Notes: a model not told the origin generated them from the sequence alone. A stretch of DNA of 64,000 nt from Candidatus Saccharimonadales bacterium (GCA_049521895.1 JBEKOJ010000001.1:98717-162716); one strand, 5' to 3'. Positions 14,480 to 50,235 are shown, counted from the first letter of the stretch. A program made the numbers and translations.

Positions 14480-14740
14480 CTGTGGAAAAGTATTAGGAAT
14501 CAGCTGCTATAGGGCACGACCCTATAGCAAGAACTGTAGCTGATGGACCTGGGCATAAGGAGCCAACCTGATATTATTTCGGGCATCTGGCGAGACCTGA
14601 GTGGATGATGTGAAAAAGGAGCGTACTTGGTTGCTAAAGCATGTTCGACGAAGTGAATATGCTGGGAGCATATTCACGAGGAGTTCTTTAGCAAGCCCTC
14701 TTTTTGACATCAGACACATCAAGTCGAGACAACCGCCCGA
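14480..14740 (-). ncRNA. candidate structured RNA (copy Z of the 78-nt-core element family)
   Basis: Core at 14621-14698 shares two perfect blocks with the island copies: GCTAAAGAACTCCTCG and CTTCGTCGAACATGCTTTAGC. They flank a hairpin (14654-14676, TGAATATGCT-CCC-AGCATATTCA) whose stem differs from the island copies by compensated changes. Further homology lies downstream (GCTCCTTATGCCCAGGTCC; CAGGTCTCGCCAGATGCCCGAA). The extent is uncertain. Confidence 0.5.
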
Positions 14741-14802
14741 GAGCTTTTGCATACTTTTGGCGGATCAAAAGTATGAGACATTTGCTTCTTTGAAAAAGAA
14801 CC

Positions 14803-30786: not shown

Positions 30787-30847
30787 TAATTGTTAACGAG
30801 ATCTATTCTATCACATCATATGCGGCCCAGGCATGCATTGTGAATGG

Positions 30848-33008: not shown

Positions 33009-33066
33009 GCGCCTGTTTCCATAATCCCAAAGTTACTTTAATTTTTGAAATCCAGGGTTATAGGTA

Positions 33067-34453: not shown

Positions 34454-34470
34454 TTTTTAGGGGTCGATCC
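34454..34470 (+). repeat. junction motif copy a (TTTTTAGGGGTCGATCC)
   Basis: Member of the TTTTTGGGRTTCGAT family. The extended similarity to copy e continues (..GGC.A..CT.AGGA.A..TGAGRA.AA). Confidence 0.7.
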
Positions 34471-34508
34471 GGGCGACGAGGCTTAGGATAAATGAGGAAA
34501 AAATATCT

Positions 34509-34706
34509 TTATTTTGGCTTTTGGTCTTGGTCGCTGCGCCAGTCCTGGCTAGAGCGGACTTTTCGCCAGGCTCTGGCAACCCGGTCACGATGGGCGCTTT
34601 TGCCGACAGATTTAAGATTGGCGAACTTGCCAAAGCGCTCGCGAATAGCAAACACGGCTTTGCCGTCAATGCTCAACCGGGTTCTAATTTTTCCCTTGTG
34701 GGCCAT
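34509..34706 (-). CDS. small basic hypothetical protein
   Basis: 65-aa ORF with a possible RBS AAGGAA upstream of the ATG. No similarity recognised. Confidence 0.35.
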   Translation of the reverse strand: MAHKGKIRTRLSIDGKAVFAIRERFGKFANLKSVGKSAHRDRVARAWRKVRSSQDWRSDQDQKPK

Positions 34707-34829
34707 GGTGATTCCTTGCCATCCCTACAATTCAACATTAACACAAAAACCACGCCGACTTGTTTAAAAATCAGCTTACGCCCCGGTTTCTTTAAAGGTC
34801 TATAATGTAGGATGAAGCAGGAGGGCTTT

Positions 34830-35195
34830 ATGGGGCAAATCAAAAACATCTTACAGCGCGCAAAAGATAATACCTATTTCCGCCAGGTTCTGGAAACCGG
34901 TAAAAACGTCCAGGTAGTAATAATGAGCATCCCGCCGGGCGGCGAAATCGGTGAGGAAGTCCACCCGGATAACGACCAAGTGCTTTATCTGGTAGACGGG
35001 GCCGGCCAAGTGGTTTTAGAGGGCCAGCCAGCCGATTTTAACGCCGGCGACCTAGTGCTAGTGCCGGCTGGGACTAAACATAACTTTATTAGCAAAAGCG
35101 ATGCGGCCATGAAAATCATCACCACTTATTCGCCACCGCACCACCCGGACGGCACGGTCCACAAAACCAAAGCCGAGGCCGACGCTGCTGGCTAA
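34830..35195 (+). CDS. cupin-domain protein
   Basis: GEEVHPDNDQVLYLVDG...GDLVLVPAGTKHNF (cupin motifs 1 and 2). RBS AGGAGG precedes the second Met, and TATAAT is at about 34802. Confidence 0.7.
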   Translation: MGQIKNILQRAKDNTYFRQVLETGKNVQVVIMSIPPGGEIGEEVHPDNDQVLYLVDGAGQVVLEGQPADFNAGDLVLVPAGTKHNFISKSDAAMKIITTYSPPHHPDGTVHKTKAEADAAG

Positions 35196-35199
35196 AATC

Positions 35200-36696
35200 C
35201 TAAGCGCTGGATTCGCTATGCGGGGCGGGGTAATTCTCTACAGCTAAGCGGATTTTTTGGATTTCGTCGTAGTCTAAGGCTTGGCCTATCTGGCGGGCAA
35301 TTTCTGGATTTTCTAGTAAGCCCCCCAGTTTTATAAATGCCGCATCTAGATCAAATTCGTAGAGCTCTTTCATCACATCTGGGCGAGTTCTTGCTATGGT
35401 TTGCACTTCTTCGTCCGACGACCCCTTAACGCGCCGAATCGTTTTGATAAAAGATTCAAGCTGGCCTACCAAAGTGGCTACAATTATACCTCTTTCATCA
35501 GGCTCTAAAAGGCGCTGGTTCTCCTCATCCGTAAGAGAGTGGAGCAAATCTATTTTTTCGGACAGTTGTTGCTTATCCCTTCTGCCTTCGGTGAGCCTTG
35601 CACCACCGCGTAATACGTCTTTAGCTACGGTAATCTGACGGCTGAGACCGGCGGACCTGGCTTGCCTATCAGCTTCCAGTTTGGCCCGTTCAGCGGCGGT
35701 AAGGTTTGTCGACGCTAATTGATTGACGACTCTGGCAAACTCCGGGTTGTCCAATTCTTTAGCTCCTACTCGTTTTAATATGTCGCGTGCCAGCCGGGCC
35801 TTTTCTGCGATATAAGCCTCCGATTTAGCTGCTGGCGCCAAAGCAGGGTCTGACTCAAAAACACCGCTTAAGTGAACCTTGGCTTCACTTGCTAGCTGCA
35901 GGATTTGTTTGGCGAAGATTTTTTGCTCGACCGGTATGATTTCTTCTTTGATGCGGTCTATACGTCTAGTGGCGCGTACCGCTAGCCTGTCCCTCAATTC
36001 CCCTACAGGAGCGATATCCTTTTCAAGCCAATTCTTCTTAAGGGCTACCCTTGCACTTTTCTGCGGCAGAATAAAGCCGACATTGATTGCTCTATAAATG
36101 TGCCTTGCGGTGCTTGCTTCGTATGCCACTAATTCAACTTCAAGATTGCCGAGGGCTATAAGAGATTCAATTGTTGCTTTGGCAGGAGCTAATTTAGCAA
36201 CTTCAGCCATACTGCCAAGAATTTGTTGAACACCACCTGACTCTAATAGGGTTCCGCCCTCTGGAAGCTCTGCTAGTGTGGCTTTAAAAATATCACCCTC
36301 TTCGTCGTATAAATCTATAGCGGCATCAAGCCGCGTACTTAAGCTTTTTGGGTACCTGCGAAAAATTCGTTGGATGGCTTTTCTCTGTGGCCGGAAGAGC
36401 TTATATTTTTCTCTCGCTGGCTTCTCGTGCCCGTTCTGGTCTTTGGGCTGCAAAACTAACAGCTGTTCGCGACTAAGGAATGATAGGTCTAGCTCGCTGG
36501 GGCGTATGTCGTATGCAAAAGGGTTCGGCTGCCTAATCAGCTCGTCCAGTCCGGCTATATTGTCGCAGGCATACTCGATCCCCAGTACCGCTGGTGCGCC
36601 TAGGGTGTCTACTACGCCGCCATCTACTCTTGCGAGGATCTGCTGCTCGTCCTCAGTCAGGTCCGAAGATGTCTCGGAAAATTCATAATCTGCCAT
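35200..36696 (-). CDS. hypothetical protein (498 aa, largely helical)
   Basis: Long uninterrupted ORF. No domain recognised. Confidence 0.6.
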   Translation of the reverse strand: MADYEFSETSSDLTEDEQQILARVDGGVVDTLGAPAVLGIEYACDNIAGLDELIRQPNPFAYDIRPSELDLSFLSREQLLVLQPKDQNGHEKPAREKYKLFRPQRKAIQRIFRRYPKSLSTRLDAAIDLYDEEGDIFKATLAELPEGGTLLESGGVQQILGSMAEVAKLAPAKATIESLIALGNLEVELVAYEASTARHIYRAINVGFILPQKSARVALKKNWLEKDIAPVGELRDRLAVRATRRIDRIKEEIIPVEQKIFAKQILQLASEAKVHLSGVFESDPALAPAAKSEAYIAEKARLARDILKRVGAKELDNPEFARVVNQLASTNLTAAERAKLEADRQARSAGLSRQITVAKDVLRGGARLTEGRRDKQQLSEKIDLLHSLTDEENQRLLEPDERGIIVATLVGQLESFIKTIRRVKGSSDEEVQTIARTRPDVMKELYEFDLDAAFIKLGGLLENPEIARQIGQALDYDEIQKIRLAVENYPAPHSESSA

Positions 36697-36920
36697 AACT
36701 GGTCTACTATATACTAATAAGACTAATAGTCAATAATTTATTCACGCCGCCGGCAAAAACTTCAGGGTCATAAAAACAAAAGGGAGCTTATTTAAGCCCC
36801 TTTTGCCGTAGCTTCCCCGCCGAAACAGTTTGCTGCTGGCCACCTCACGTGGCTATTTTTATTATAGCACGAGCATTTTTCTTGCCCGCAAGCTTATATG
36901 GAAACCTAAATTTTCAGGGG

Positions 36921-37322
36921 TTAGCCGTACTGGTTCCATGCTATGTAGGCTAATCGCTTAATCTCGGGGTCTGTGTCCAATAAAAGCGTCATTCCCAGCT
37001 GCTGTGCACCCCCTGGATCCAAGGATCGTAGTTTGTCCAGGTGGTCAAGTACCGCTTTTCTTACCGCCGGGTCTGAGCTTGCCGCCATTGCGCTGTATAG
37101 CTTCGCAGCATCTTCGGGCGGACCCTCAAAAATCCTTGATTCTACATAGTTTACAAGAGTCGCTCTACCGCCTTCACCCTCATGGTCTTGCCTAAACTGA
37201 AGTTCTTGTGAATACCGAGCCGCAATTACGGGCGCCCAATCTGTTCCAGATGACTCAGGTGACAACTCACTCATATTCTTTATGATGCAATAGATTAATG
37301 AAAGGATCAACTCATAAATCAA
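36921..37322 (-). CDS. hypothetical protein, HEAT/ARM-like repeats
   Basis: ORF with a TTG start. Contains short helical repeats (SSDPAVRKAVLDHL..., DTDPEIKRLAYIAW). Confidence 0.45.
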   Translation of the reverse strand: MIYELILSLIYCIIKNMSELSPESSGTDWAPVIAARYSQELQFRQDHEGEGGRATLVNYVESRIFEGPPEDAAKLYSAMAASSDPAVRKAVLDHLDKLRSLDPGGAQQLGMTLLLDTDPEIKRLAYIAWNQYG

Positions 37323-37345
37323 ATTTCAAGGTCTAGACAATTTTA

Positions 37346-37650
37346 TTTCGGGGGATTCGATGAGAGAAATAATTTTGCTACCCGGAGTGGCCGGGTAGCG
37401 CCTGCCACCGGGCGCGTCGCCGGCTCGATGTATCTGTTGTTTAAAACAGGCTCGCTAAAGAACTCCTCGCTGAGCAGTCCCCGACTACTCAACTTCGTCG
37501 AACATGCTTTAGCGCCCAAGGACGCCTCTTTGAAACAACATCTGCTCGGGCCAGCTCCTTATGCCCGGACCTGTTAGCTTCATCTGTTTTGAGCTGATGC
37601 CCGCCGTGTAGCGAACCGCGTTCTACTACTGCGGCCCGGACCCATTTTAT
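37346..37650 (+). repeat. structured element copy A (junction motif b + 78-nt core at 37449-37526)
   Basis: Starts TTTCGGGGGATTCGATGAGAGAAATAATTTTGCTA. Hairpins are CTACCCGG-AGTGG-CCGGGTAG and CTGTT..AACAG, and the core hairpin at 37471-37491 is TGAGCAGTC-CCC-GACTACTCA. Ends GCGGCCCGGACCCATTTTAT. Positions 37371-37526 are nearly identical to 44241-44396. Confidence 0.85.
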
Positions 37651-38356
37651 GTCTAAGTTTTCTTAAACCCGAACCGATACAAAAAAGCACAGCTATGTTA
37701 AAGCTGTGCTTTGAAACAAACGGTAAGTCTTTTTACGATTTACGACCCAGGCTAAAGTGTGCCTATATATGGGATCTGTAAACGCTCGCTCGTAAGCAGA
37801 AAGATGTAGCGTTTCAAGCGGACTCAGATTTTGCTGTCAAAGAGAATACGTCTGTACATTAATAATATCACACTTTTTTATTTTGTCCAGATATCTTCTG
37901 CAACCTTTGGATAGCAAAGGTTGCGCCAAATCCTTCTGGTTTTTGAGGGCCCAAAGCTAGTCCCAGTCGGGGGCGTAGTGTCAGGATTCGGTACGGGTTG
38001 GGATAACCTTAAACAGCAGTGTGTTGTCGGTGATGTAGCTGAATTATAGTTCATAGCCATATTTGATATTTGTATTTCAAAAGGTTTTATAGGCTTATTA
38101 CCCTAATAGGCTCACTATAATACTAATGCTTAAAAAATCAATACCTCTATATGGCGGGCTTTAGCTAGACTAAGCTTGCGTTAAGCTCTACGCCCAGAAG
38201 ATCAGATTGGCAACCAGCTTGACATTTTGGAATTTTAATATTGATAAAAGTTTATCTTTATGCTTTAATGATGTTACTTCGGAGTACTTCGTTTGGTGCG
38301 TTGGCTGTTCCGAAGACTCAGCCTTAATCGTACTCCTACAAAAAGAGAGGGTTTTC

Positions 38357-39271
38357 ATGACCAGAAGGTTATGGATTCTCGCAGGCGCGATCTTCGCGGC
38401 TGTGGTGCTCGGCGTCGGTTTTGCAACTGGCGCGCAGAACTACATCATCTCCAGCCCCAACCAGATCGCTAACAACATCATCCCGGCCTGGAAGCTCACG
38501 CCGGCTGCCCGGCAGTCGCTCCAGGGCGACCGCGGCCCGCAAGGACTGCATGGCCAACGCGGAGCGCAGGGTCCTGCAGGCCAATCAATCATCGGCCCGC
38601 AGGGCCCCGCCGGAGCACCCGGGGCGTCCATCACGGGACCCAAGGGTGACACCGGTAATACGGGTCCGGCGGGAGCCGACTCAACGGTGCCCGGTCCGAA
38701 GGGCGACAAGGGTGACACCGGTAATACGGGTCCGGCGGGAGCCGACTCAACGGTGCCCGGTCCGAAGGGTGACAAGGGTGACACCGGAGCAGCCGGTCCG
38801 CAGGGGCCGCAGGGCGGCAGCCTGTTCGTGTTCGGGCCGTACGCCGGGTCGTCGACGGACTCGTCTGTCTGCGGACCCGACTGGGCAAACGACACCTACA
38901 CCAGGACGTTCGCCGTCGTACCTCAAGCCGACGGCTCGTTCCTGCTCTACGAGTACGCGTCGGGGACCTTCACGACGTTGGCCGGTAACTCGCCCGAGGA
39001 CTGCAACGTGCAGATCCCGGCGGGAATCACCGGAACTCTCTACGGCGACGAAGCGTTCACCATCCCGGCCGGGTCGGACTTCGACCCGACGGCCAGCTTC
39101 AGCTCGCCCGCCGGGCAGCACAACTCGGACGCGGTAAGCGCGTTCATCGCCGCGTTCTTCCCCGGCCAGACGCTGCCGGACAACTACGCCTGGCAGTTCC
39201 ACTACCGGACCGCAAGCAACGGCTCGTGGGACGACACGGACCACGGCGACACGGGGAACATCACCCCGTAA
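38357..39271 (+). CDS. collagen-like (Gly-X-Y) repeat protein with signal/TM anchor and globular C-terminal domain
   Basis: MTRRLWILAGAIFAAVVLGVGFA, then about 100 aa of GXY triplets (GDRGPQGLHGQRGAQGPAG...). GC is high from the start codon onward. RBS GAGAGGG. The longer track ORF (from 38207) begins in AT-rich non-coding-looking sequence. Confidence 0.8.
   Translation: MTRRLWILAGAIFAAVVLGVGFATGAQNYIISSPNQIANNIIPAWKLTPAARQSLQGDRGPQGLHGQRGAQGPAGQSIIGPQGPAGAPGASITGPKGDTGNTGPAGADSTVPGPKGDKGDTGNTGPAGADSTVPGPKGDKGDTGAAGPQGPQGGSLFVFGPYAGSSTDSSVCGPDWANDTYTRTFAVVPQADGSFLLYEYASGTFTTLAGNSPEDCNVQIPAGITGTLYGDEAFTIPAGSDFDPTASFSSPAGQHNSDAVSAFIAAFFPGQTLPDNYAWQFHYRTASNGSWDDTDHGDTGNITP
38645..38776 (+). repeat. 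perfect or near-perfect 66-nt tandem duplication inside the collagen-like gene
   Basis: GGTGACACCGGTAATACGGGTCCGGCGGGAGCCGACTCAACGGTGCCCGGTCCGAAGGG.GACAAG occurs twice, encoding GDTGNTGPAGADSTVPGPKGDK twice. Confidence 0.9.
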
Positions 39272-39375
39272 GCGTCAAGCCGGGTAAAACCGGCACTCGG
39301 CTCGCATACGCGATGCCGCCGCATGGCTCAGTCTGAGTCATGGTCACGGCAGCTTCGCCAAAACGGGCAAAACCT

Positions 39376-39419
39376 GGGCCCGGTGACTGTGAAGTCACCG
39401 GGCCCTCTCTTTATGTTTT
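39376..39419 (+). terminator. GC-rich terminator ending the collagen-like block
   Basis: GGGCCCGGTGAC-TGTGAA-GTCACCGGGCCC (12-bp stem) followed by TCTCTTTATGTTTT. Confidence 0.7.
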
Positions 39420-39451
39420 CGCAATCATCATATGCTTTTTAAATAGCTTTA

Positions 39452-39730
39452 TTTTGGGGTATGATGAAAAATAATTTTGCTAGCCTGAATGGCAGCAGTC
39501 ATCTTCTTTTCCAAAGAAGCAAATAATTTTGTCACCTTTTACCGAAAAGGTGACACCAAACTCTCGGCTGCTTCCTCACCGTGACTTGATTGTTGGTAAA
39601 AATCAAGGCTCGCTAAAGAACTCCTCGCTGAACAGTCCTCGACTACTCAACTTCGTCGAACATGCTTTAGCGCCCAAGGACGCCTGATTTCCACAACATC
39701 AAATCAGGGCTCGAAAGATGCCGAACTTGC
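39452..39730 (+). repeat. structured element copy B (junction motif c + core at 39607-39684)
   Basis: Starts TTTTGGGGTATGATGAAAAATAATTTTGCTA. Its hairpins differ from copy A at equivalent positions (GTCACCTTTT-ACCG-AAAAGGTGAC; CTTGATT..AATCAAG), followed by the same core. The 3' hairpin is CCTGATTT..AAATCAGG. Confidence 0.85.
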
Positions 39731-39748
39731 TAAATCCAGTTACATACA

Positions 39749-40411
39749 TCAATCAGCGCGAAGTTGCTCGTGATACTGACTAACCCACTCAAACTCTTGA
39801 GCCCCAATACGACCCGCCTCTTCTAGCATATTCATAGCAGAGGCAAGGCCATTAATGGCTACCATGTCATACCCCGCATCACTAACTACTTCGGCGCCAC
39901 CTTCTTCTCTGTCAAACATAATTACAAAACCTTGGGTGCTAAGCATCACCTCACCCAATGAAGCGACAGCCTCAAGTTTTGAAGCGGCGTTTGTAATGAC
40001 ATCATCTAGATCAACTACGGTATCTCCTTCAACGAAGTCGCCTTCTATAGGTGTATGTACTCCATATTCTTGGTCCCCAACTCTGCCCCAAAGTATTGAA
40101 TCACCCCTTAACTGTGCGACCATGCCTCCCAACGGGGTCATGGATTGGGGTATACCGTATAAATGTTCATAGGGTTTACCGAGGTCATCGATCCCAATTG
40201 AATAAGCTTCCACAGCTAGGTCGCGGATTCGACGCTGATTATCTAGTGAAAGTCTGCTATTTTTTGCGAAAGAAGTAATCCCGCGCTGATTGTAGTAAAG
40301 AGGAGATCTTCGCCCTGACTTTAGTGTCCATGTAAAGTCACTAAACATTAATGCTCCGCGGTCATATAGACCTATGGTCAATTCTTCAAGTTTCGACTGC
40401 TCTAGGGCCAT
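39749..40411 (-). CDS. type I phosphoribosyltransferase, orotate PRTase-like
   Basis: LYDRGALMFSDFTWTLKSGRRSPLYYNQR (PyrE-like N-terminus) and a PRPP-binding loop TVVDLDDVITNAAS. Confidence 0.7.
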   Translation of the reverse strand: MALEQSKLEELTIGLYDRGALMFSDFTWTLKSGRRSPLYYNQRGITSFAKNSRLSLDNQRRIRDLAVEAYSIGIDDLGKPYEHLYGIPQSMTPLGGMVAQLRGDSILWGRVGDQEYGVHTPIEGDFVEGDTVVDLDDVITNAASKLEAVASLGEVMLSTQGFVIMFDREEGGAEVVSDAGYDMVAINGLASAMNMLEEAGRIGAQEFEWVSQYHEQLRAD

Positions 40412-40526
40412 TACAAAGATTATTCAGCTATTTCTATTTTGACGCAAGCATAAGCAAAATACTTAACGTGCGCGCCCCGTAGGATCTGAAAGATTCCTTC
40501 TGGGGTTAAGTATTCCCTACTCCTCA

Positions 40527-40552
40527 TTTTTGGGGTTCGATGGGAAAGATTT
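40527..40552 (+). repeat. junction motif copy d (TTTTTGGGGTTCGATGGGAAAGATTT)
   Basis: The minus-strand reading gives ..IFPIEPQK-TGA, mimicking the gloA C-terminus IELIESQK-TAA. Confidence 0.75.
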
Positions 40553-40996
40553 GTGACGGGGTTTGCAAGCCAATATTTCGATGGTATAGTTTACTCTATG
40601 ACGGGAGAAATAGGGCCGCCAATATCGCCCGAAGATTTATCACGGGCCTACGTGGAAAATAATAGCCGCCGGATAGACGAAATTATTGCTCAAGAAAGCT
40701 CGGTTTGGCAAGAAGCCATTGACGCTGGCGACGGGTTCTCCCCCTATCACGAGGCTCAGCTGGCGCTGTTGGCGGGTTTAGGCGACCGCGTAAAGACCCT
40801 TGCAAGGCTTTATAGAGTAGAAGAACAGGTAGACAGAGAGTTTTTCTACGATTTGTTGGGCTTCATAAGGGCGACGGATTACGACCCGTCTGACCCTAAT
40901 TCCATACCGCCAACTCGTAAGATTGAGACCGAGCACATAGTTGAAGCCGTGCTTAGCTTACGTGAGCGTAATGCGGGCTTGCAAGAAGCCGCCTAG
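40553..40996 (+). CDS. hypothetical protein
   Basis: 147-aa ORF with a GTG start that exactly fills the space between junction motif copies d and i. No domain recognised. Confidence 0.5.
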   Translation: MTGFASQYFDGIVYSMTGEIGPPISPEDLSRAYVENNSRRIDEIIAQESSVWQEAIDAGDGFSPYHEAQLALLAGLGDRVKTLARLYRVEEQVDREFFYDLLGFIRATDYDPSDPNSIPPTRKIETEHIVEAVLSLRERNAGLQEAA

Positions 40997-41006
40997 CTAC
41001 AGTATG

Positions 41007-41384
41007 TTATTTTTGGGATTCGATAAGTTCGATGCGGTAGCCGTCGGGGTCGCGCACAAAGCAAATCAGGCCGCCGCCGGCACGGACGCTGTATGGCGGT
41101 TTTTCGGGTTCAATGCCCTGTTTGGCCAGCTTAGCCAGAGTATCGGTCAAATTATCAACTCTTAGGGCAATGTGGCCGTAGCCGCTACCGATTTCATATT
41201 TATCAACGCCAAAGTTGTAGGTCAGCTCCAGTTCCGGTTGGGGTTTGTCGGGCACACCGTAAAAATAATTGACCGCCTCGTCGCGGATTGGCAGTTCGCG
41301 GCGCTTTTCCAGCCCTAGCGCCGTATAAAACGCCTCGGACTTCTTAGGATCGGTAATCCGGTAACACGTATGGACTAGCTGCAT
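41007..41384 (-). CDS. gloA: lactoylglutathione lyase (glyoxalase I, VOC family)
   Basis: ELTYNFGVDKYEIGSGYGHIALRVDN and FVRDPDGYRIELIE closely follow the GloA pattern. TATAAT is upstream at about 41393. The last codons (41008-41027) are junction motif copy i. Confidence 0.9.
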   Translation of the reverse strand: MQLVHTCYRITDPKKSEAFYTALGLEKRRELPIRDEAVNYFYGVPDKPQPELELTYNFGVDKYEIGSGYGHIALRVDNLTDTLAKLAKQGIEPEKPPYSVRAGGGLICFVRDPDGYRIELIESQK

Positions 41385-41419
41385 AATCTAATTATAGCTT
41401 GGTCCAGTCTTAGATTTTA

Positions 41420-41446
41420 GGTAGCCGTTGTATATTCGAATTGGAA
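41420..41446 (+). repeat. 27-nt direct repeat, left copy (GGTAGCCGTTGTATATTCGAATTGGAA)
   Basis: 25 of 27 nt are identical to 43426-43452. The two copies bracket the GC-rich three-gene block. Confidence 0.85.
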
Positions 41447-41758
41447 TACTATCTTGGCTGAGCTATCTCGGTGGAAGAGCCTATCTAGAGATGGTAATCT
41501 GTTAGCTTGCTCTACTGGGTAGGAGTGGAACTTGGCCCTCGCTGCTCAACGAGGCTAGAACTCTAATTGCAATTAACGATTATTGGGGTTAATCTCGCTT
41601 TCGTCCTTTTGGACTCGTCAGTATGAACAAACATTCATATAGCGATTCAGGAAAGGGTAGATTCGGAGCAAAAATGCTCGAAACGAAATCTACCCGACCT
41701 GCTGGCGGGGACAGTAATGTCCCCGCCATCCTGCGCAGGTCTGCTCTGGTGCCGCCTT

Positions 41759-42394
41759 CTACCTCGTGAACTTGAACGACGGAGGTCCGGTGATCTGGAT
41801 CTGGCCCGTGGCGTCGTTCCACGTTGCCGCCGCGAAGGTGGAAGCCACGTAGCCCTCCCAGTAGAAGGGGGTGACCGCACCGCCCTTGCCGATGCAGAGG
41901 ACGTACGTTCCCGTGCCGCCGCCCTGGTAGATCCCGTTCGGATCCATGTTCTTGATCGTGATGTTGCCGCCGCCGTTGTTCAGCGGTTGGGAGTTGTCGC
42001 GCTCCGGCTGATCCGGATTGCTGAGCTGGTCTTCGACCTGGATCGGCGCGCCGATCGACGGGCACTGGTACATCGGCGGGCTGGCCTTGGTGCAGCCCAT
42101 CGGCGGGCAGAAGAACGACGTCGACTGGGCACCCACGACCTCGGCGTTCTCGATCTCGATCAGGTTCTGCCGGATCTGGCTCTTGCCGGAGAAGGCCGGC
42201 AGCGGCTGAACCTGCAGGTAGTGGTTCGAGATGACGTCCTGCTGCCGCTGTTCGGTGTCGATCGGGTTGCTGCCCGACGCCAGCGCTGCGCCGGTCGAGA
42301 CCAGCAGAGCGAAGACGATGGCGAACGCAACGCGTCCACGGGTGATCTTGATCGTCAGCGGTTCCGTCCGGCGGTATCTCGGGAACTTCTTCAT
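41759..42394 (-). CDS. secreted Cys-containing hypothetical protein (GC-rich block)
   Basis: Signal/TM segment (VAFAIVFALLVSTGAALA). RBS GAGGAG. A GC-rich hairpin GGCGGGGA-CAGTAATG-TCCCCGCC (41704-41727) lies downstream of the stop. Confidence 0.65.
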   Translation of the reverse strand: MKKFPRYRRTEPLTIKITRGRVAFAIVFALLVSTGAALASGSNPIDTEQRQQDVISNHYLQVQPLPAFSGKSQIRQNLIEIENAEVVGAQSTSFFCPPMGCTKASPPMYQCPSIGAPIQVEDQLSNPDQPERDNSQPLNNGGGNITIKNMDPNGIYQGGGTGTYVLCIGKGGAVTPFYWEGYVASTFAAATWNDATGQIQITGPPSFKFTR

Positions 42395-42407
42395 GTCGTC
42401 AGTCTCC

Positions 42408-42872
42408 TCAGTGGGGGTTGGGTTCCGTCGGGTACGTCTCGTAAGGAGACGCTGGATTCGCTACGTCGCCGTTGCAGTTGGCCTTGATGAAGGCCGCCGA
42501 CGGCAGCGGGCCCTGTGAGGGGTCTACCGTCGAGGCGTCGCTGCAAAGGGTCATGAGCGTATTGAGCCGCTGGTTCCCCAGGGCCTGCTTCTCCTCTTCC
42601 GTCTGGCCGACCATCTGAGCGCCGATCTGGCTGATCTCCTGCATGTCGGCGGTCACCGCCTGGCGCTGGGCCTGCTGGTAGCCGTAGTTGTGCACGTAGT
42701 TGTGCGCCTGGATCTGGTTGATCGTTCCTTGCCGCTTGGCATTCTGGACCTGGAACCAGCCGCCGACGGCCCAGCCGACGACGAGAATCACGACGACCAG
42801 GGCTGCGGCAATCGCTGCGAGGGCCATTCCTGACAGCCCAGCGATGACTCCCTCGCGGGTGTCGTCATTCAT
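42408..42872 (-). CDS. single-TM hypothetical protein (GC-rich block)
   Basis: TM helix LSGMALAAIAAALVVVILVVGWAVGGW. The start overlaps the upstream stop (ATGAATGA coupling). Confidence 0.65.
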   Translation of the reverse strand: MNDDTREGVIAGLSGMALAAIAAALVVVILVVGWAVGGWFQVQNAKRQGTINQIQAHNYVHNYGYQQAQRQAVTADMQEISQIGAQMVGQTEEEKQALGNQRLNTLMTLCSDASTVDPSQGPLPSAAFIKANCNGDVANPASPYETYPTEPNPH

Positions 42873-43107
42873 GAAGTCTCCTCCTTAGCCGTTTCGTTTC
42901 GGCTTCTCGGTCTAGTGAGATCTTACGAACCGCGTACTCATTTGCGGTTATCTTGTCCATCATCACGGCCTCTTCTAGCGCCTTCTGTCGCGTCTCGATC
43001 GACGGGTGTTTCTGCTTGTATCCCTGTCGCAGCAACACCCCGACCACACCTAGAAGGAGGATCGCGATTAGAACGAGTACTCCAACTACTAAGAGTGGGT
43101 TAATCAT
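42865..43107 (-). CDS. small TM protein with SHOCT-like C-terminal helix (GC-rich block)
   Basis: TM helix LLVVGVLVLIAILLLGVVGVLL, then KITANEYAVRKISL resembling the SHOCT motif. RBS GGAGAG. Confidence 0.6.
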   Translation of the reverse strand: MINPLLVVGVLVLIAILLLGVVGVLLRQGYKQKHPSIETRQKALEEAVMMDKITANEYAVRKISLDREAETKRLRRRLHE

Positions 43108-43153
43108 TTCTTGCTACTGCTCTCCTTTCGGATATGGAGCGGGGTGTCAATTT

Positions 43154-43208
43154 CCCTGTTCAGGGTTATCACGCTCATTATTATCAAAGCGCAAAAACCC
43201 TGAACAGG
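43154..43208. promoter_or_regulatory. pair of palindromic 12-mers upstream of the GC-rich operon (candidate operator)
   Basis: CCCTGTTCAGGG (43154-43165) and CCCTGAACAGGT (43198-43209) are about 44 nt apart, 47-100 nt upstream of the first gene start. Confidence 0.4.
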
Positions 43209-43348
43209 TTAACTAGAGCATGTTGTTAAAGTACCTTCGATGTGTTACCACCTCAAAGAAACTGGATTATAATACCACAAATATAATAAACGGTCAATAC
43301 TCGATACTCGTTGCTTAACGAATTAGAATATCAAAAGCACCGGGTAAG

Positions 43349-43452
43349 ACTGGAACCTAAATAACAGAGGTAGTATAAAAATGAGGATTGACTAACTTGC
43401 CAATCCGGATCTGTTATTCAAACTTGGTAGCCGTTGTTCATTCGAATTGGAA
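43349..43452 (+). repeat. duplicated gene-end + hairpin + tRNA-3'-like segment (copy 1), including right copy of the 27-nt repeat
   Basis: ACTGGAACCTAAATAACAG... repeats the last codons, stop and downstream hairpin of the 43513-44100 gene (about 75% identity to 44085-44165 by eye). It ends in CTTGGTAGCCGTTGTTCATTCGAATTGGAA. Confidence 0.8.
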
Positions 43453-43512
43453 CGACCTTAGACCAGAGTTAGCGAGATGGAAGTCTTTGCTAGCAAGTGC
43501 TAACCTAGTCAT

Positions 43513-44100
43513 ATGACAGAACAAACAACAAAAAGCAGCGAATTACTAAATAGTCCGAGATTTGAACTGACTGAACTTGATGGTGATGACGGTATCCCCA
43601 CTCATCTGCACGGCTTTAGGCTGCTATATCAAGCTGATGAAGGCTACGCCTATTCTAAATGTTTTGAAGGCTATCATTTGGGAGTAAACGATGATGATAC
43701 AGAAGAAGTTGACCCTGATTTTTTTAGCATTGAATTAGTAGAGAACAAAACAGGTGAGCCAGGAATTGCTTCTAAACTCATAAGAGCTTCCATAAAAGAG
43801 GCTATAAAAAGAGGTTTTAGCCAAGGCAGAGCTAGGATTTTCAATCCAAAAATCTTGACGATACTCGAGAAAATGCAGAGCGAGGGCCTTGTGTCAGATA
43901 TTGACTGCTACCTTGGAGATGAGAGTACACCCATCCATTTTCCATCAAGCGAATTAGCTGCAAAATATACACCTGTTACTCCAGAAGCAGCTAAACAGCA
44001 TTTAGAGATGTATCCTCATACAGACGACAGGTTGAATGAGGATGCTATAGCTGAAACGGTTTTTAAAATCAATAACCAAGAAGGACTGGAACCTAAATAA
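43513..44100 (+). CDS. hypothetical protein (possibly GNAT-like fold)
   Basis: 195-aa low-GC ORF. There is only weak resemblance of FFSIELVENKTGEPGIASKLIRASIKEAIKRGF to an acetyltransferase motif A region. Confidence 0.55.
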   Translation: MTEQTTKSSELLNSPRFELTELDGDDGIPTHLHGFRLLYQADEGYAYSKCFEGYHLGVNDDDTEEVDPDFFSIELVENKTGEPGIASKLIRASIKEAIKRGFSQGRARIFNPKILTILEKMQSEGLVSDIDCYLGDESTPIHFPSSELAAKYTPVTPEAAKQHLEMYPHTDDRLNEDAIAETVFKINNQEGLEPK

Positions 44101-44183
44101 CAGGGGTAGGAATAAAAAAAGATTAGCCCGTTTGCTAATCTCTATCTGTTACTTAAGCTTGGTAGACCAAACGAGACTCGAAC
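44085..44183 (+). repeat. gene-end + hairpin + tRNA-3'-end-like fragment (copy 2)
   Basis: Hairpin GATTAGC-CCGTTT-GCTAATC, with a T7 run on the minus strand. Positions 44158-44183, read on the minus strand, give GTTCGAGTCTCGTTTGGTCTACCAAG. That is T-loop, T-stem 3' half, 7-nt acceptor, A and CCA, with no 5' half. Confidence 0.75.
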
Positions 44184-44190
44184 TTTAGAG

Positions 44191-44500
44191 TATTTTTGGG
44201 ATTCGATCCTTCGGCCAGCTCAGGACAGGTGAGAAGAATAATTTTTGCTACCCGGAGTGGCCGGGTAGCGCCTGCCACCGGGCGCGTCGCCGGCTCGATG
44301 TATCTGTTGTTTAAAACAGGCTCGCTAAAGAACTCCTCGCTGAGCAGTCCCCGGCTACTCAACTTCGTTAAACATGCTTTAGCGCCCAAGGACGCCTGAT
44401 TTTTACAACGTCAAATCAGGGCTCGAAAGATGCCGAACTTAAGAAGCCGATACCTGTCCAGCACTTATCGCGATAAGTGCTGCGGCCCGGACCCATTTTA
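44191..44500 (+). repeat. structured element copy C (junction motif e + core at 44319-44396)
   Basis: TATTTTTGGGATTCGAT (44191-44207) is 17/17 identical to gloA 41008-41024. A 32-nt insertion follows relative to copy A, then sequence nearly identical to copy A through the core. The 3' hairpin is CAGCACTTATCG/CGATAAGTGCTG, and it ends GCGGCCCGGACCCATTTTA. Confidence 0.85.
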
Positions 44501-44520
44501 TCTTTGGGATTCAACAAGAG
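44496..44520 (+). repeat. junction motif copy f (TTTTATCTTTGGGATTCAACAAGAG)
   Basis: The minus-strand reading gives VESQR-TAA, again mimicking the gloA end. Confidence 0.65.
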
Positions 44521-44525
44521 AAATT

Positions 44526-44723
44526 TTGGTGCAGCAAGTAGGAAAATCTTTACACCTCATCAGGGATGAGATAGCCCGTTGGAGAACTATGCTAGAAATC
44601 CCTTATCGGGAGTATCTAAGTTCTATAATGCAATTAAGTGACACAAGGGATTTATACATGTTAGTAGATAGAATAGATGAGGCGCAGCTTAAAGACACTT
44701 TCGGGCTAGAGCTTACTGACTAG
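44526..44723 (+). CDS. possible small hypothetical protein (start uncertain)
   Basis: This is the 3' part of track ORF 44430-44723. The 5' part overlaps the non-coding repeat, so only TTG/GTG starts at 44526/44529 are plausible. There is no clear RBS. Confidence 0.3.
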   Translation: MVQQVGKSLHLIRDEIARWRTMLEIPYREYLSSIMQLSDTRDLYMLVDRIDEAQLKDTFGLELTD

Positions 44724-46517
44724 GTTAGTGATCAGACTTTTAATACTTGCCTGAGTTGTCGATCTCAAATCCGTCAGCTTTAATTTACTGTCTTTTACTT
44801 TTTTATAAAACTTTATAGCAGAAATTAGCTTTGGCAGATTATTGTCGAGCAGGTACTTAGAATTAGTTGTCGTGTATCTTACGCTACTATTCCCAATAAC
44901 ATGCTTCTTAAAATCGCCCTTAGTAAAAATATCTTCGATTCCATCAACCCCTACCCCAATTAACTTGTTACTAGAGAGTGTTGGGTCACCACCGAACACA
45001 TCCCGTTTGATTTCTCTCCTGACACTCTTACCAGCTGGATCGTCATCAGTAAGCACTACAAAATCTAGATCCCATCCCAAGAATAAATTAACTAAGAGCG
45101 GGATATTTGTGACTCCTGTAGCAGGCAGAAAGTTAGTTTCATGCGTTTCGCCGATTAGTTTTTTAAAGGCTTTAAGATAATAGAACGCACTTGGCTCTTC
45201 AAGAATAATATTATTTTTATTCTTTATGGCCTTTTGGTGGTCAAGACTTACGCCAATGAGAGTATATACAGGAAATAGGGTGTCTCTGTTGGCTGCACCA
45301 AGTTTATGTATGTCAAAGACATTTGTTTCACTATTCTCATCATCCACATCTGATCTCTGAACTGCCAGTAAGCGGTAGAGTGATTCAGGCTCAATTAAGT
45401 AAGGTGAGTGAGTTGTATAAAAGATCTGAAGATTCTTCCTAATGTCTTCGAATACTTTTAATACATCTTTCTGCGCCTTAGCATGTAATGAAGCACCAGG
45501 TTCATCGATGAGCAGTATATCGTTATTATTTTCGACTTTTGCCATTGCGTTTAACTGTAAGAAAAAGGACAAAAACCACTGCACCCCCTTACTGCGCTGA
45601 TCAGGGCGCAAAAGCTCTTGAGAATCCTTAACCCAAAACGAAAGGTAGGGCTTACCCGCTAACTCAGGATCTTTGTCATCATGATTTTTAAGCTCTACCT
45701 CTATTTCTATTTTGCTGCTCTTACCTATATATTGTCTCCAGAACTCCTGAAATTGATGCGTAAGAGCTAGGTTAGCCCTTCTAACTTTTTTACCCAAAGT
45801 CCGTGCGTGAGTTTGTGCTAGATCTGATGAATTTAGATCAACAATTCTAAGAAAATTGCGTGCACCTTTTATGCCAGGAGCTTGTGACGAGGTATTGTCT
45901 ATCTCGCTCAAGTCAATAGTCGCAGGCAGTAGACTACCCAAATCTTCGAAAAATTCAATGCTGGGAGTATGAGAATAGATCTGTTCTACTAAATCGGTAT
46001 AGTCCAAAGCCTTTGGCAGTGCTTTTGTTTCCGTAGCCGCAGGTTCTGCTTCGTTTTCTGCTGGTGCTTCTTCCGCTCCAGGTTCTTCCGCGGGGGGTTC
46101 AGGCGCAGGCTGGCTAGTAGAAACAGACTCAATAATCTCCCTCAGATCATCGTTCTCAATATCTAGGGTCGATGTTTCTTTGTCCAAGCCAGTCCAGGTT
46201 CGCTTAAGTATAATAATGTTCCCATTCTTATGGAAATAGTCAGTTACGGGTTTAGCCCCATCGTATTCTATAAGTATTTCTGCAAGTTCTTCCTCACTAA
46301 ATGCATATGTGCAGGTCACTTCAGGGTATAGGTCAGCATCCTTTAAGTAATCTTCCTTGAGCTCCCCTTGATCAAAGCAGTACAATGCCTCTAGCACTGC
46401 GGTCTTTCCAGCTTCATTCTGACCGATTAGAGCTGTAATGTTGTCAGAAGATGTTTGGCACAGTCCAGTGTCGATAATTGATTTAAAGTCCTTGATTCTA
46501 AAAGCTGTTAACTTCAC
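44706..46517 (-). CDS. OLD-family nuclease (ABC-type ATPase + Toprim)
   Basis: Walker A GQNEAGKT, Walker B ILLIDEPGASLH, Toprim Glu (IILEEPSAFYY) and DxD (VVLTDDDPAGKS). Low GC, GTG start. Confidence 0.8.
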   Translation of the reverse strand: MKLTAFRIKDFKSIIDTGLCQTSSDNITALIGQNEAGKTAVLEALYCFDQGELKEDYLKDADLYPEVTCTYAFSEEELAEILIEYDGAKPVTDYFHKNGNIIILKRTWTGLDKETSTLDIENDDLREIIESVSTSQPAPEPPAEEPGAEEAPAENEAEPAATETKALPKALDYTDLVEQIYSHTPSIEFFEDLGSLLPATIDLSEIDNTSSQAPGIKGARNFLRIVDLNSSDLAQTHARTLGKKVRRANLALTHQFQEFWRQYIGKSSKIEIEVELKNHDDKDPELAGKPYLSFWVKDSQELLRPDQRSKGVQWFLSFFLQLNAMAKVENNNDILLIDEPGASLHAKAQKDVLKVFEDIRKNLQIFYTTHSPYLIEPESLYRLLAVQRSDVDDENSETNVFDIHKLGAANRDTLFPVYTLIGVSLDHQKAIKNKNNIILEEPSAFYYLKAFKKLIGETHETNFLPATGVTNIPLLVNLFLGWDLDFVVLTDDDPAGKSVRREIKRDVFGGDPTLSSNKLIGVGVDGIEDIFTKGDFKKHVIGNSSVRYTTTNSKYLLDNNLPKLISAIKFYKKVKDSKLKLTDLRSTTQASIKSLITNLVSKL

Positions 46518-46654
46518 CTGACCCTCTTTTGCGTAATTATGCTAATTATCCTCTATGCCTTCTAGTAAGTAAATACTACATAATGCTTATGCTTATATCG
46601 CAAGAATTAATAGATGTCGAACGATAAGTATTGGACACTTACGGTATAGGTCTG

Positions 46655-46680
46655 TTTTTGGGGCTCGACGAGAGAGATTT
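46655..46680 (+). repeat. junction motif copy g (TTTTTGGGGCTCGACGAGAGAGATTT)
   Basis: Immediately abuts the stop codon of the SRA-HNH gene. The minus-strand reading contains VEPQK. Confidence 0.75.
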
Positions 46681-47508
46681 CTAGTTATTGAAGAATTTTT
46701 CGTTGTGGTATTTGAGAAATTCTAAATTAATATGATGCTTTGGAGATATCACTATCCTACCCTTCAAAGGCCCGACAAGCTGTAGTCTAGGATCGATTGA
46801 GAAGGCATAATTATCGAACATAACATGGTGATTGGGGCATAGACAAAGTATATTCTCAATTATATCTGGCCCGTCGTGTGGCCTGCCTAATGGCTTTATG
46901 TGCGCTGCTTCAGCATATCTCTGTCCAAGTGGAAGTTCGATAGCCATACCACAAACCTGGCATCTATAGTCATATATCTCCTTCAGCTTTCTAGATTGTT
47001 TTGTGTCACGCACAATTCTTAACGATTGATATTCCCGGCGCTCTGAAGGGAGCACTTCACCTTTGGGCCGACTGGTTTGTTGATAGCTGCCTTCAAGCCT
47101 AAAGCGAATAACGATATGCCCGCTCTTACCAACCTCGCGCCAATATTCAGTTACATAAAAATCCCCAGCATACGTATATCCTCTTTTTGGAGAAAATTTT
47201 GACTCATGATTAGAGTCCCTTATTACATGTATGGGAGCATTTCTTTCCTTACTTATAGCTAAGGCTAGATTACCTTTTGTCAGTTGCTGGTCTGATATTT
47301 GCTTACCACTTCTTGGATCGCGCCCTCCCTCACCGGTGTAAATGACTATGTTGCCATAATCCTCATCATCTTCATAACCACCAGACAAGACTATTGAATA
47401 AGCTCCCGTCGCCGGGTTTCCGGCTATACCAGCCATAAGCGGTCCATGAAGACCTGCTGCTGCAACTTCTCGCCTATTTTGAAAGTTTGTGCCCGGTTTG
47501 ACCATCAT
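46681..47508 (-). CDS. SRA(YDG)-HNH endonuclease, type IV (modification-dependent) restriction enzyme-like
   Basis: SRA pattern AGLHGPLMAGI...GAYSIVLSGGYEDDEDYGNIVIYTGEGG. The C-terminal HNH is CQVCG...AAHIKP...NILCLCPNHHVMFD. Confidence 0.85.
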   Translation of the reverse strand: MMVKPGTNFQNRREVAAAGLHGPLMAGIAGNPATGAYSIVLSGGYEDDEDYGNIVIYTGEGGRDPRSGKQISDQQLTKGNLALAISKERNAPIHVIRDSNHESKFSPKRGYTYAGDFYVTEYWREVGKSGHIVIRFRLEGSYQQTSRPKGEVLPSERREYQSLRIVRDTKQSRKLKEIYDYRCQVCGMAIELPLGQRYAEAAHIKPLGRPHDGPDIIENILCLCPNHHVMFDNYAFSIDPRLQLVGPLKGRIVISPKHHINLEFLKYHNEKFFNN

Positions 47509-47530
47509 TACTTAAGCCTGTGGTTTTCTG

Positions 47531-49387: not shown

Positions 49388-49731
49388 AGTTCGGTATATT
49401 TCTTGTGGCTGTTTTTGGCTTTCGTAACTGGGTATTTTTTCTCGTTTTTCTTCATTTTGCGCTCAAATTCCTTCGGTAAATTTATATCTAGATCATGCGC
49501 TATCAAAAGTACCCAGTACAAAACATCCACTAGTTCATCGCTTACTTCTTCACGATTCTTTTTTAGATGTTTTTTAATTTCTTTGGCTGACTTCCATTGA
49601 AAGTGCTCCAAAAATTCGGCGGCTTCAAGCGCCAAAGAAATGGCTAAGTCTTTAGGATTATGAAACTGTTCCCAGTTTCGCTTGTCCCGATAGTTAATAA
49701 TCCTTTTTTGCAAATCCTCAAGATCAGACAT
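49384..49731 (-). CDS. MazG-like nucleotide pyrophosphohydrolase (dCTPase/DR2231-type small MazG)
   Basis: RDKRNWEQFHNPKDLAISLALEAAEFLEHFQWK and EEVSDELVDVLYWVLLIAHDL (EExxE/D metal motifs). The stop overlaps the DUF2075 start by 4 nt (ATGA). ATG at 49731 has a GGAG RBS. Confidence 0.8.
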   Translation of the reverse strand: MSDLEDLQKRIINYRDKRNWEQFHNPKDLAISLALEAAEFLEHFQWKSAKEIKKHLKKNREEVSDELVDVLYWVLLIAHDLDINLPKEFERKMKKNEKKYPVTKAKNSHKKYTEL

Positions 49732-49751
49732 CAAAGCTCCAATTCCAGCTA

Positions 49752-49757
49752 ATTATA
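49752..49757 (-). promoter_or_regulatory. putative -10 box (GGGTATAAT) of the MazG-DUF2075-SRA/HNH operon
   Basis: TATAAT lies about 20 nt upstream of the ATG. The same GGTATAAT-type box precedes several neighbouring small genes (about 50210, 50735, 52290 on the minus strand). Confidence 0.35.
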
Positions 49758-49824
49758 CCCCTGTTTGGGGTGCTGGCGCTAGCCAGTTTGTAGTTAAGCG
49801 GGTCCAAGCCGCCGCGAGCCTGGT

Positions 49825-50178
49825 TTAGTAAACGGGGAGCTGTTCCATCAAGTTAGCTTCATCTTGGAGTTCGCTGACTAGCTGGCGTTTGCGGCCGGCC
49901 CTAATTTTGTATTTTTGTCGGCGTAGAAACTGTACGACCGTACCGATGGCAAGCACAGTGAATAAAGCGGTGGCTTCTTCTTTTTCATACGCCCACTGTT
50001 CGGGCACATAGTTCAGAGCTATTGTCGCCCCGCCTGACAGCAGAGCCATTGCTCCAAAAGACTGGGCGCTGTCTTTAATATCCGCCGCGGTATCTTCTAG
50101 ATCTTCTGCCTGCATATCCAGACCGTCTATGATAATTCCCAACTCTTCTTGCTCGGTTGTTTTTAGATCTTCAATCAT
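49825..50178 (-). CDS. hypothetical membrane protein (acidic N-terminus, 2 TM)
   Basis: ORF with its own TATAAT-like box upstream. No domain recognised. Confidence 0.5.
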   Translation of the reverse strand: MIEDLKTTEQEELGIIIDGLDMQAEDLEDTAADIKDSAQSFGAMALLSGGATIALNYVPEQWAYEKEEATALFTVLAIGTVVQFLRRQKYKIRAGRKRQLVSELQDEANLMEQLPVY

Positions 50179-50235
50179 GTTTTAGTAAATCTTACAAGTT
50201 AACCAAAAAATTATACCCCCGTTCCGGCAAAATCT

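Follow-up and report, generated by a model that had tools for sequence, protein, structure and literature searches.

A stretch of 64,000 nucleotides from a Candidatus Saccharimonadales bacterium (GCA_049521895.1 JBEKOJ010000001.1:98717-162716; the whole stretch is referred to here as the window) carries a short sequence motif that recurs in one orientation among mutually unrelated genes, with one copy forming the very end of gloA, a glyoxalase I gene. What does this motif mark, and how did it come to be repeated? An earlier note on the window had read the copies as scars of repeated site-specific integration into the 3′ end of gloA or, alternatively, as a cassette array exchanging at a fixed site. 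We found that the motif is a conserved, oriented, unstructured element of ~30 bp that marks the 3′ ends of modules in a variable island linked to gloA, and that breaks in homology, insertions and deletions between genomes fall at it. The explanation that we favour, tentatively and with slightly less than even confidence, is that the element is a recombination junction at module ends, functionally like the attC sites of integrons, with the recombinase encoded elsewhere.

All eight sites of the earlier note are present in one orientation (its + strand), and its minus-strand readings of them (IESQK*, IEPQK*, VESQR*, VEPQK and IDP*) are correct. The actual unit is longer than had been proposed, at ~27-31 nt. 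On the minus strand, the coding strand of gloA and of most island genes, the full element reads approximately (C)TAG-AAATTTCTCTC-ATCGAAYCCC-AAAAAT; on the + strand it extends into GAGAGAAATTTCTA, and the string GAGAGAAAT(T)T is common to copies 37346, 40527, 44496 and 46655 and, weakly, to 39452. Three copies (37346, 39452 and 44191) lie next to a repeated structured element, as the note had also reported, which is described below as an RNA family. The eight copies are listed in the gloA sense.

46653..46684, minus strand: full copy, CTAG-AAATCTCTCTCG-TCGAGCCCC-AAAAA (position weight matrix (PWM) score 33.4, nhmmer E=0.0015); its TAG is the stop codon (46681-46683) of the SRA-HNH open reading frame (ORF, 46681..47508)
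44500..44527, minus strand: copy AAATTTCTCTTG-TTGAATCCC-AAAGAT, 180 nt past the stop of the OLD/AriA-like ATPase gene and directly upstream of a TAAAAT box and the 5′ end of the 44-kb RNA copy
44191..44207, minus strand: core-only copy, the 17-mer TATTTTTGGGATTCGAT, with a 23-nt insert (44208-44230) between it and the tail of the 44-kb RNA copy
41008..41024, minus strand: core-only copy, encoding the final codons and stop of gloA (..IESQK*)
40527..40554, minus strand: full copy, AAATCTTTCCC-ATCGAACCCC-AAAAAT, at the distal end of a block with a 132/147-aa ORF that is missing from the related locus L038
39451..39477, minus strand: degenerate copy, after an RNA 3′ hairpin/tail remnant, GCTGCCATTCAGGCTAGC-AAAATTATTTTTC-ATCATACCCC
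37346..37374, minus strand: full copy, directly past the terminator-like 3′ hairpin of the 37-kb RNA copy (hairpin at 37377-37399, tail AAAATTATTT)
34454..34468, minus strand: degenerate core-only copy, ATCGACCCCTAAAAA, in a divergent intergenic region

The cores at 41008-41024 and 44191-44207 were confirmed to be identical at 17/17 positions, and their flanks are unrelated. When the 64-kb window was searched with TTTTTGGGRTTCGAT at up to 3 mismatches, 14 matches were obtained, compared with 4.0 ± 1.7 in shuffled windows and with a count of 14 in none of 100 shuffles; nine of the 14 lie on the + strand of 34454-46669. PWM matches averaged ~0.2 per shuffled window, and the combined PWM and nhmmer scan gave no scoring match in the window outside 34-47 kb. 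Could such similarity arise by chance, from low-complexity A/T- and C-rich sequence, or by independent convergence on LIESQK-like C-termini? A ninth look-alike, at 41100 inside gloA (IEPEK), is ordinary coding sequence, and so are the 18-mer matches in viral contigs. However, the enrichment over shuffles, the restriction to one strand, the conservation of non-coding copies across lineages and the sharing of an 11-nt left arm outside any ORF effectively refute this explanation, to which we attach negligible probability.

To what, then, is the motif attached? A PWM and a 15-seed nhmmer profile were run on ~290 kb of non-redundant Saccharibacteria DNA from roughly 30 loci (related loci carry L numbers here). 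Matches were confined to gloA-linked variable islands in at least seven lineages, comprising the window, its strain variant L003/L027, L038, L041, L044, L045/46, L047 and L060, and all matches with E < 0.2 were co-oriented with gloA. Because these lineages are related by descent, the copy counts are not independent events. In seven cases the start of the motif is the stop codon of the upstream co-oriented gene.

Window, 46681: SRA-HNH gene
L038, 3394: NmeDI_C-domain gene
L045, 626: GIY-YIG gene
L047, 1330: DUF1861 gene
L041, 8162: gloA
L045, 2233: 83-aa ORF
L003, 4545: 363-aa ORF

TAG accounts for six of these seven abutting stops, compared with 18 of 60 stops in the window, so the TAG appears to be part of the motif. 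In three further cases the motif lies 7-60 nt past the stop, and in L046 (7555-7585) translation of an MmeI-like restriction-modification gene runs in frame through the entire motif, so that the protein ends in ...EEISLIESQK*. RNA 3′ hairpins precede five copies (37346, 39452 and 44191 in the window, L038 6027 and L041 6021), and the only copies without a co-oriented unit before them are 40527 and 34454 of the window. Association with the gene that follows is weak. That gene is convergent in four of 13 cases, and the spacing to a TATAAT box varies: the box lies 19 nt past the core only upstream of gloA in L045 and L047 and is elsewhere absent or 38-100 nt off. The 363-aa proteins that precede the motif in L003 and in L038 were considered as a single cassette, and this was rejected, since their sole significant local match covers 83 aa at 24% identity. 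A weak string resembling the motif, TTTCCATAATCCCAAAG, was also seen on the + strand at 33018-33036, directly behind the stop of the cytochrome b gene, which has the same orientation; if the string is real, the orientation of the motif follows the gene that it caps.

Positions of this kind raise the main rival, which we hold to be somewhat unlikely, namely that the motif is a functional 3′-end or intergenic signal of each transcription unit (a protein or RNA binding site for termination, processing, stability or silencing) and owes its conservation to that role, and that modules are shuffled by ordinary recombination after natural transformation, with no dedicated recombinase. The tie to the upstream gene or RNA end and not to the downstream gene would be as expected of such a signal; moreover, the U-rich tail of the RNA terminator hairpins runs on into the left part of the motif, AAAUUAUUUCUCUC, and the motif, as read from its sequence, is C-rich and G-poor and resembles a Rho loading site. 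Against this, none of the non-island genes of the window has the motif at its 3′ end, and neither does the 14.6-kb RNA copy, which excludes a general terminator; solo copies show neither a hairpin nor a promoter or terminator consensus. When 120-nt windows around 14 solo copies were folded, no fold signal was found on either strand (mean z of 0.13 and 0.38 relative to shuffles), the motif itself being unpaired or inconsistently paired. A consensus scan detected no minus-strand promoter-like site at any motif copy. A terminator consensus scan flagged no solo copy; the same scan flagged the RNA 3′ hairpins (37399-37377 and 39555-39530) and the terminator of the collagen-like gene. On these grounds a sigma-70-type promoter and an intrinsic (Rho-independent) terminator were rejected as identities of the solo copies. 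Two other identities were also discarded. As a tRNA or tmRNA remnant the motif has a T-arm-like TTCGA without pairing stems, and ARAGORN gave only two normal tRNAs, both distant; as a phage or plasmid attP it returned, in two motif-pattern scans of IMG/VR, only chance coding matches. No Rfam family was found for the motif at gathering or permissive thresholds.

Does the content of the island vary among relatives at the motif? Contigs with an identical gloA protein fall into two strain types. Three blocks of the window are referred to in the comparisons that follow.

44446..50204, no strand: strain-variable block of 5.8 kb, with an OLD-like ATPase, SRA-HNH, a Schlafen-type helicase and a MazG-like protein
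40541..41007, no strand: presence/absence block of 0.47 kb, with the orphan 132/147-aa ORF (+ strand), bracketed by copies 40527 and 41008
41025..44190, no strand: module of 3.2 kb flanked by a perfect 17-bp direct repeat

In L003 and L004, 44446-50204 is replaced by 5.8 kb of other genes, with one breakpoint inside the 44-kb RNA copy and the other in the promoter region after a conserved 155-aa gene. The sister lineage L038, in which the gloA DNA is 85% identical, lacks the block 40541-41007: the region that precedes the 220-aa gene adjoins gloA there, with the join at ATCGAATCCC, one junction being in the ATCGAATCCC core at 41008-41024 and the other beyond the 40527 copy. Also in L038, a module of RNA-39k and motif is located upstream of gloA and not downstream of the 220-aa gene, and its homology stops right after the motif. 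More generally, blocks shared between lineages stop in the motif at their 3′ side (41015, 41019 and 41008 for gloA blocks, 39444 for RNA-39k and 37352 for the RNA tail) and at gene starts at their 5′ side. DUF3175 lies 9.5 kb from gloA in the window but comes directly after it in L044, and in L045 ~3 kb of other genes lie between gloA and the cytochrome b gene. Use of the 141-aa gene as a second anchor gave no further locus variants. The module at 41025..44190 contains gloA, GC-rich ORFs (41.6-42.9 kb) and a 195-aa gene, and its flanks share no homology beyond the 17-mers. The absence of a block from L038, the ending of homology in the motif and the gloA-DUF3175 junction of L044 represent block-wise variation among relatives at motif-marked boundaries, and of the two options in the earlier note it is the cassette array exchanging at a fixed site that fits best.

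Is gloA itself the target from which the array grew? The gene is placed as follows.

41007..41384, minus strand: gloA, VOC/glyoxalase I protein of 125 aa, identified by Pfam

Its product is ~77-80% identical to VOC/glyoxalase proteins of Actinomycetota (Gaiella and others), in which the tails read ..IELIERSDY. Actinomycetota are the typical hosts of Saccharibacteria, and this degree of identity suggests, at the level of sequence comparison, that gloA moved between host and epibiont. Among Saccharibacteria the residues that follow IELIE vary widely (SQK, SKK, AKK, FRK, KK, S, SPHRNSL and RSGN). A full motif comes right after a native-like tail, RSGN*, in L041, and in L060 a full motif lies 14 nt from the gloA end (CTCATCGAATCC...), the two forming a direct repeat; the gloA of the window has only the right 17 nt of the motif, joined at ATCGAA. 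The variable tails and the L041 and L060 junctions indicate that the IESQK* tail of the window is motif sequence joined at the shared ATCGAA. Although the motif core, CTCATCGAA, resembles the native L-I-E codons of gloA, the gene is not clearly the source of the motif, which follows the native stop in one lineage and tails an unrelated protein in another. Moreover, in five lineages a pair of co-oriented copies encloses gloA, in modules whose content differs.

Window: copies 44191 and 41008
L038: copies 6041 and 6754
L041: copies 6802 and 8179
L045: copies 639 and 1037
L047: copies 1346 and 1744

Upstream of gloA, different defence genes were found in every lineage examined, including restriction-modification genes, an OLD-like ATPase, a GmrSD-domain HNH nuclease (L058), toxin-antitoxin genes and a UG13a-type defence reverse transcriptase (L060 2198-4021, 28 nt upstream of gloA).

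The earlier note's integration model, in which the 3′ end of gloA would serve as an attB and repeated integration would leave stacked att scars by tandem accretion, can draw on the native CTCATCGAA coding sequence that the core resembles. It would also account for the four successive blocks downstream of gloA that end in copies 40527, 39452, 37346 and 34454, for the shorter array from gloA to cytochrome b in L045, for L044, which looks like an empty site, and for the tandem direct repeat in L060. We nevertheless regard it as very unlikely. Copies also stand upstream of gloA, both in the window (44191, 44496 and 46655) and in L038, L045/46 and L047, and gloA itself lies between two of them; in other lineages copies directly follow the stops of unrelated genes, and in L046 the motif forms the tail of the restriction-modification protein. 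In L041 and L060 the full copy lies past the gloA stop, in the former after an intact native-like tail, and the most distal copy of the window, 34454, lacks the expected arm sequence. Finally, no tyrosine or serine recombinase, transposase or IntI-like gene was found in the window, where the earlier note had likewise seen none, or in ~10 related island loci (~150 kb in total), which weakens classical accretion by an integrase.

What is the structured element that accompanies several copies? It is ~280 nt long and present four times in the window, three times in the island and once, in the opposite orientation, outside it.

37361..37650, minus strand: full-length RNA copy
39500..39730, minus strand: 5′-shortened variant
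44228..44502, minus strand: RNA copy
14480..14800, + strand: RNA copy outside the island, convergent with the BtuR/CobO gene

The position of the 14.6-kb copy beside BtuR/CobO is syntenic in another Saccharibacteria species (a metagenome-assembled genome). A scan with the core pattern recovered the element from 18 metagenome stretches and, within GTDB, from one further Saccharibacteria species; copies also occur in L010-L030 and in L038 (5745-6015), and the family is so far known only from Saccharibacteria. An alignment of 19 copies gave 44 consensus pairs, 23 of them with compensatory changes, and showed variable hairpins around a conserved core, GCUAAAGC...GAGGAGUUCUUUAGC. In the three island copies, hairpin mismatches turn into G·U pairs only on the minus strand of the window, which indicates that the RNA is transcribed in the sense of gloA; these copies have a TAAAAT box before the start and a terminator-like hairpin at the end, with the tail AAAAUUAUUU. 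Rfam, at gathering and permissive thresholds, has no family for the element. The signal recognition particle (SRP) RNA, RNase P and guide RNAs were rejected as identities, a likeness to SRP helix 8 being seen in one RNA subtype only and no Rfam match being obtained. A link between the RNA and a reverse transcriptase was rejected as well, the L060 enzyme being of the UG13a defence type with no RNA element nearby. No loops complementary to the motif were conserved in the 19-copy alignment.

Two side observations concern the surroundings of the RNA and the motif. A AATACTTAAC-type half-site, or a full palindrome (AATACTTAAC..GTTAAGTATT), is found upstream of RNA 5′ ends in several species and also 20-35 nt downstream of two motif copies of the window, the sites being as follows.

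Window, 40505-40517 and 46625-46640: AATACTTAAC-type sites
L003, ~1420-1460: AATACTTAAC-type site
L015, ~7935-7990: AATACTTAAC-type site
L024, ~3995-4050: AATACTTAAC-type site

Also, ~110 nt past the motif core are conserved between L041 (6802-6910) and L047 (133-240), with different downstream genes; the shared stretch, CCCCCAT.AAAT...GGGGATYTAACGGGGCAA.GCAA.AATAAC...TTCGRCATCTG, may be a decayed RNA 5′ region or a common leader.

Could the RNA 3′ end, in the manner of tRNA and tmRNA attB sites, be the primary target, with the motif as the RNA trailer and the solo copies as partial scars? The five copies placed directly after RNA 3′ hairpins point in this direction, as do a partial hairpin, tail and motif just past an intact RNA copy (39451-39500) and degenerate RNA fragments beside motif copies in L038, L041 and L044. 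The order RNA, motif, gloA recurs in L038 and, in degenerate form, in L044, and in L041 an RNA-like copy with motif lies upstream of an NAD_binding_10-gloA module. We consider this explanation a long shot, however. The motif was not found after the 14.6-kb RNA copy or after the copies in more distant species, so the RNA and the motif are separable; full RNA paralogues are repeated and not 3′ fragments alone; most solo copies begin at the stop codon of a protein gene and lack any remnant of a hairpin; and no integrase was found in the loci examined.

The RNA copies also bear on the 3′-end signal with ordinary recombination, in which the RNA genes and the motif would serve only as patches of homology for homologous, short-homology or homology-facilitated illegitimate recombination. 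The copies are mosaics of one another, and the L003 swap breaks within the 44-kb copy, which is ~95% identical to its paralogues; such a route would also need no recombinase, and none was found in any of the loci. However, 27-31 bp is short for RecA-dependent exchange, and this alternative leaves unexplained the stop codon within the motif, the in-frame ORF fusions and the module flanked by 17-mers.

We favour a recombination junction because the site includes the stop codon, ORFs run into it in frame, one module lies between two perfect 17-mers that have no homology around them, and the element is conserved across lineages with no regulatory signature. Under the proposed mechanism, modules consisting of a promoter, one or more genes and the motif would be gained, lost and exchanged by recombination, with crossovers within the ATCGAAYCCC core or at its right edge. 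The gene gloA would be one such module, its IESQK* tail representing the motif joined to a native ..IELIE end. In this inferred scheme a site-specific recombinase encoded elsewhere would act on the motif, strand exchange would take place at this position, and the array would be an analogue of the attC sites in a cassette cluster without an integrase.

Several observations weigh against this interpretation. The motif has no clear dyad symmetry and no attC-like fold (mean z ~0), some module genes run the other way, and the window and the related loci yielded no recombinase. The L003/L004 swap is as expected of plain homologous recombination. In L038 one junction is inexact, homology clearly resuming only near 40457, ~70 nt past the 40527 copy, and being weak between. 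Also, only one of the four large GC jumps (~38.3, 39.3, 41.7 and 43.0 kb) is at a motif copy (39.3-39.45 kb); the earlier claim that the motif sits exactly at boundaries of both genes and composition thus holds for module boundaries and was overstated for composition.

How does the array compare with known systems? Like integron cassette arrays and clusters of attC sites lacking integron-integrases (CALINs), it has a conserved site at or overlapping the stop of each cargo gene, co-oriented copies, unrelated and often small or orphan cargo that includes defence and detoxification genes, content that varies among close relatives, and no adjacent integrase. The attC site is an imperfect inverted repeat, R''-L''...L'-R', of ~55-140 nt, which forms a single-stranded hairpin and carries a GTTRRRY core. 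The motif, in contrast, is ~30 bp, linear and unstructured, with no R''/L''/L'/R' palindrome, no hairpin fold and no visible GTTRRRY; neither IntI with attI and Pc nor any Phage_integrase or other recombinase domain was found in the 64-kb window or the related loci. Modules here may also be multigene, partly on the opposite strand and equipped with their own TATAAT promoters, and the host is a Saccharibacterium, a member of the candidate phyla radiation (CPR).

Tandem accretion, as in the cis-mobilizable elements next to ICESt1/ICESt3 at fda or in tycheposons at tRNA genes, is similar in that direct repeats of a short core bound successive blocks without recombination genes, one repeat overlapping a gene (gloA) or an RNA 3′ end. 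An identical core indeed lies at both ends of a block, one overlapping the end of gloA (the 17-mer at 41008 and 44191), and block 40541-41007 is bracketed as well. The copies differ in that they flank gloA on either side and follow many unrelated genes instead of all being 3′ of one target gene, that no integrase is found in ~10 loci, and that the repeats cap single genes and not kb-scale elements. The pdif (XerC/XerD) modules of Acinetobacter plasmids offer many unstructured sites of ~28 bp that bound small cargo, with the recombinase elsewhere. A pdif site, however, has two 11-bp inverted arms and alternates in direction; the motif runs in one direction and, by eye, has only a weak outer symmetry (ATTT..AAAT), with asymmetric inner arms (CTC / CCC), and no similarity to dif was established. 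In the microcin H47 island of Escherichia coli, modules are bounded by short direct repeats without a recombinase of their own, and deletion between repeats is plausible (PMC3191183, PMC5426353); that island is a single case with one repeat pair, whereas the motif is multi-copy, cross-species and tied to stop codons.

Short intergenic repeats and RNA-like units at loci exchanged by transformation or recombination are also known as dRS3 and Neisseria intergenic mosaic elements (NIME) with minimal mobile elements, and as repetitive extragenic palindromes (REP) and bacterial interspersed mosaic elements (BIME). However, dRS3 and REP are palindromic and genome-wide, and the motif is asymmetric, island-local, strictly co-oriented and inclusive of a stop codon. 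As for features of miniature inverted-repeat transposable elements or insertion sequences, no inverted partner of the motif and no transposase were found; the 44-kb RNA copy lies between two motif copies (44191 and 44496), an arrangement that could imitate a target-site duplication, but the 37-kb copy does not. A literature search on integrons, non-coding RNA and island repeats in Saccharibacteria found nothing relevant.

The genes at 33-50 kb of the window, which belongs to a contig of 770 kb, are mutually unrelated and of mixed orientation. They comprise genes for a 426-aa protein, a cupin, 498-aa and 117-aa proteins, a collagen-like protein (68% GC) and a 220-aa protein, the orphan 132/147-aa ORF, gloA, GC-rich ORFs (64% GC), and genes for a 195-aa protein, an OLD/AriA/GajA-like ATPase, an SRA-HNH nuclease, a Schlafen-type (AbiO/Nhi-like) helicase and a MazG-like protein. 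The cargo is thus heterogeneous, with defence genes, blocks of 64-68% GC and an actinobacterial-like gloA. The 132-aa ORF is an orphan without homologues and provides no support for its own mobility as a cassette. At 41600-42900 (64% GC) long ORFs overlap on both strands without a Pfam match, and gene callers disagree over the strand, giving either two minus-strand products (154 and 211 aa) or one of 256 aa from the + strand; this segment is probably foreign DNA within the 17-mer-flanked module. A 43-nt direct repeat, 81% identical (43339-43381 and 44075-44117), brackets the 195-aa gene and has GACTGGA(A)CC and CCTAAA(A)T strings in common with the region upstream of gloA; this pair may be another module boundary. 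The collagen-like gene (38357-39271, + strand) contains 66-nt tandem units (repeats at 38641-38772) whose number depends on the strain, giving proteins of 282, 304 or 326 aa in otherwise identical contigs. Beyond the island, an S-adenosylmethionine riboswitch (30692-30788, minus strand, 48.7 bits) precedes the S-adenosylmethionine synthetase gene. A cytochrome b-like membrane protein is encoded near gloA in two lineages (window 31629-33008, + strand; L045 3963-5345), and a heliorhodopsin gene lies on the far side of one island (L046 167-928); both are unexpected for reduced CPR genomes.

A more far-reaching idea, which we consider decidedly unlikely, is that the island belongs to an unrecognised gene-capture platform of Saccharibacteria, in which a ~30-bp unstructured site with its own stop codons would cap captured genes and a recombinase encoded elsewhere, possibly with the linked RNA, would stack and swap modules beside gloA. 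If this were true, the cargo of the platform would include genes from actinobacterial hosts, and in functional terms the system would be an integron that lacks IntI and attC hairpins. How Saccharibacteria, ultra-small epibionts whose genomes are reduced, gain and turn over defence genes and host-derived genes is poorly understood; a conserved junction element that bounds modules in their main variable island would offer a testable handle on this gene flux. Such a site could be looked for in genomes and used to delimit cargo, and might serve as a landing pad in the few genetically tractable strains. Alongside it, an RNA family supported by covariation and new to Rfam was revealed, and gloA emerges as the edge marker of a defence-island hotspot across the group.

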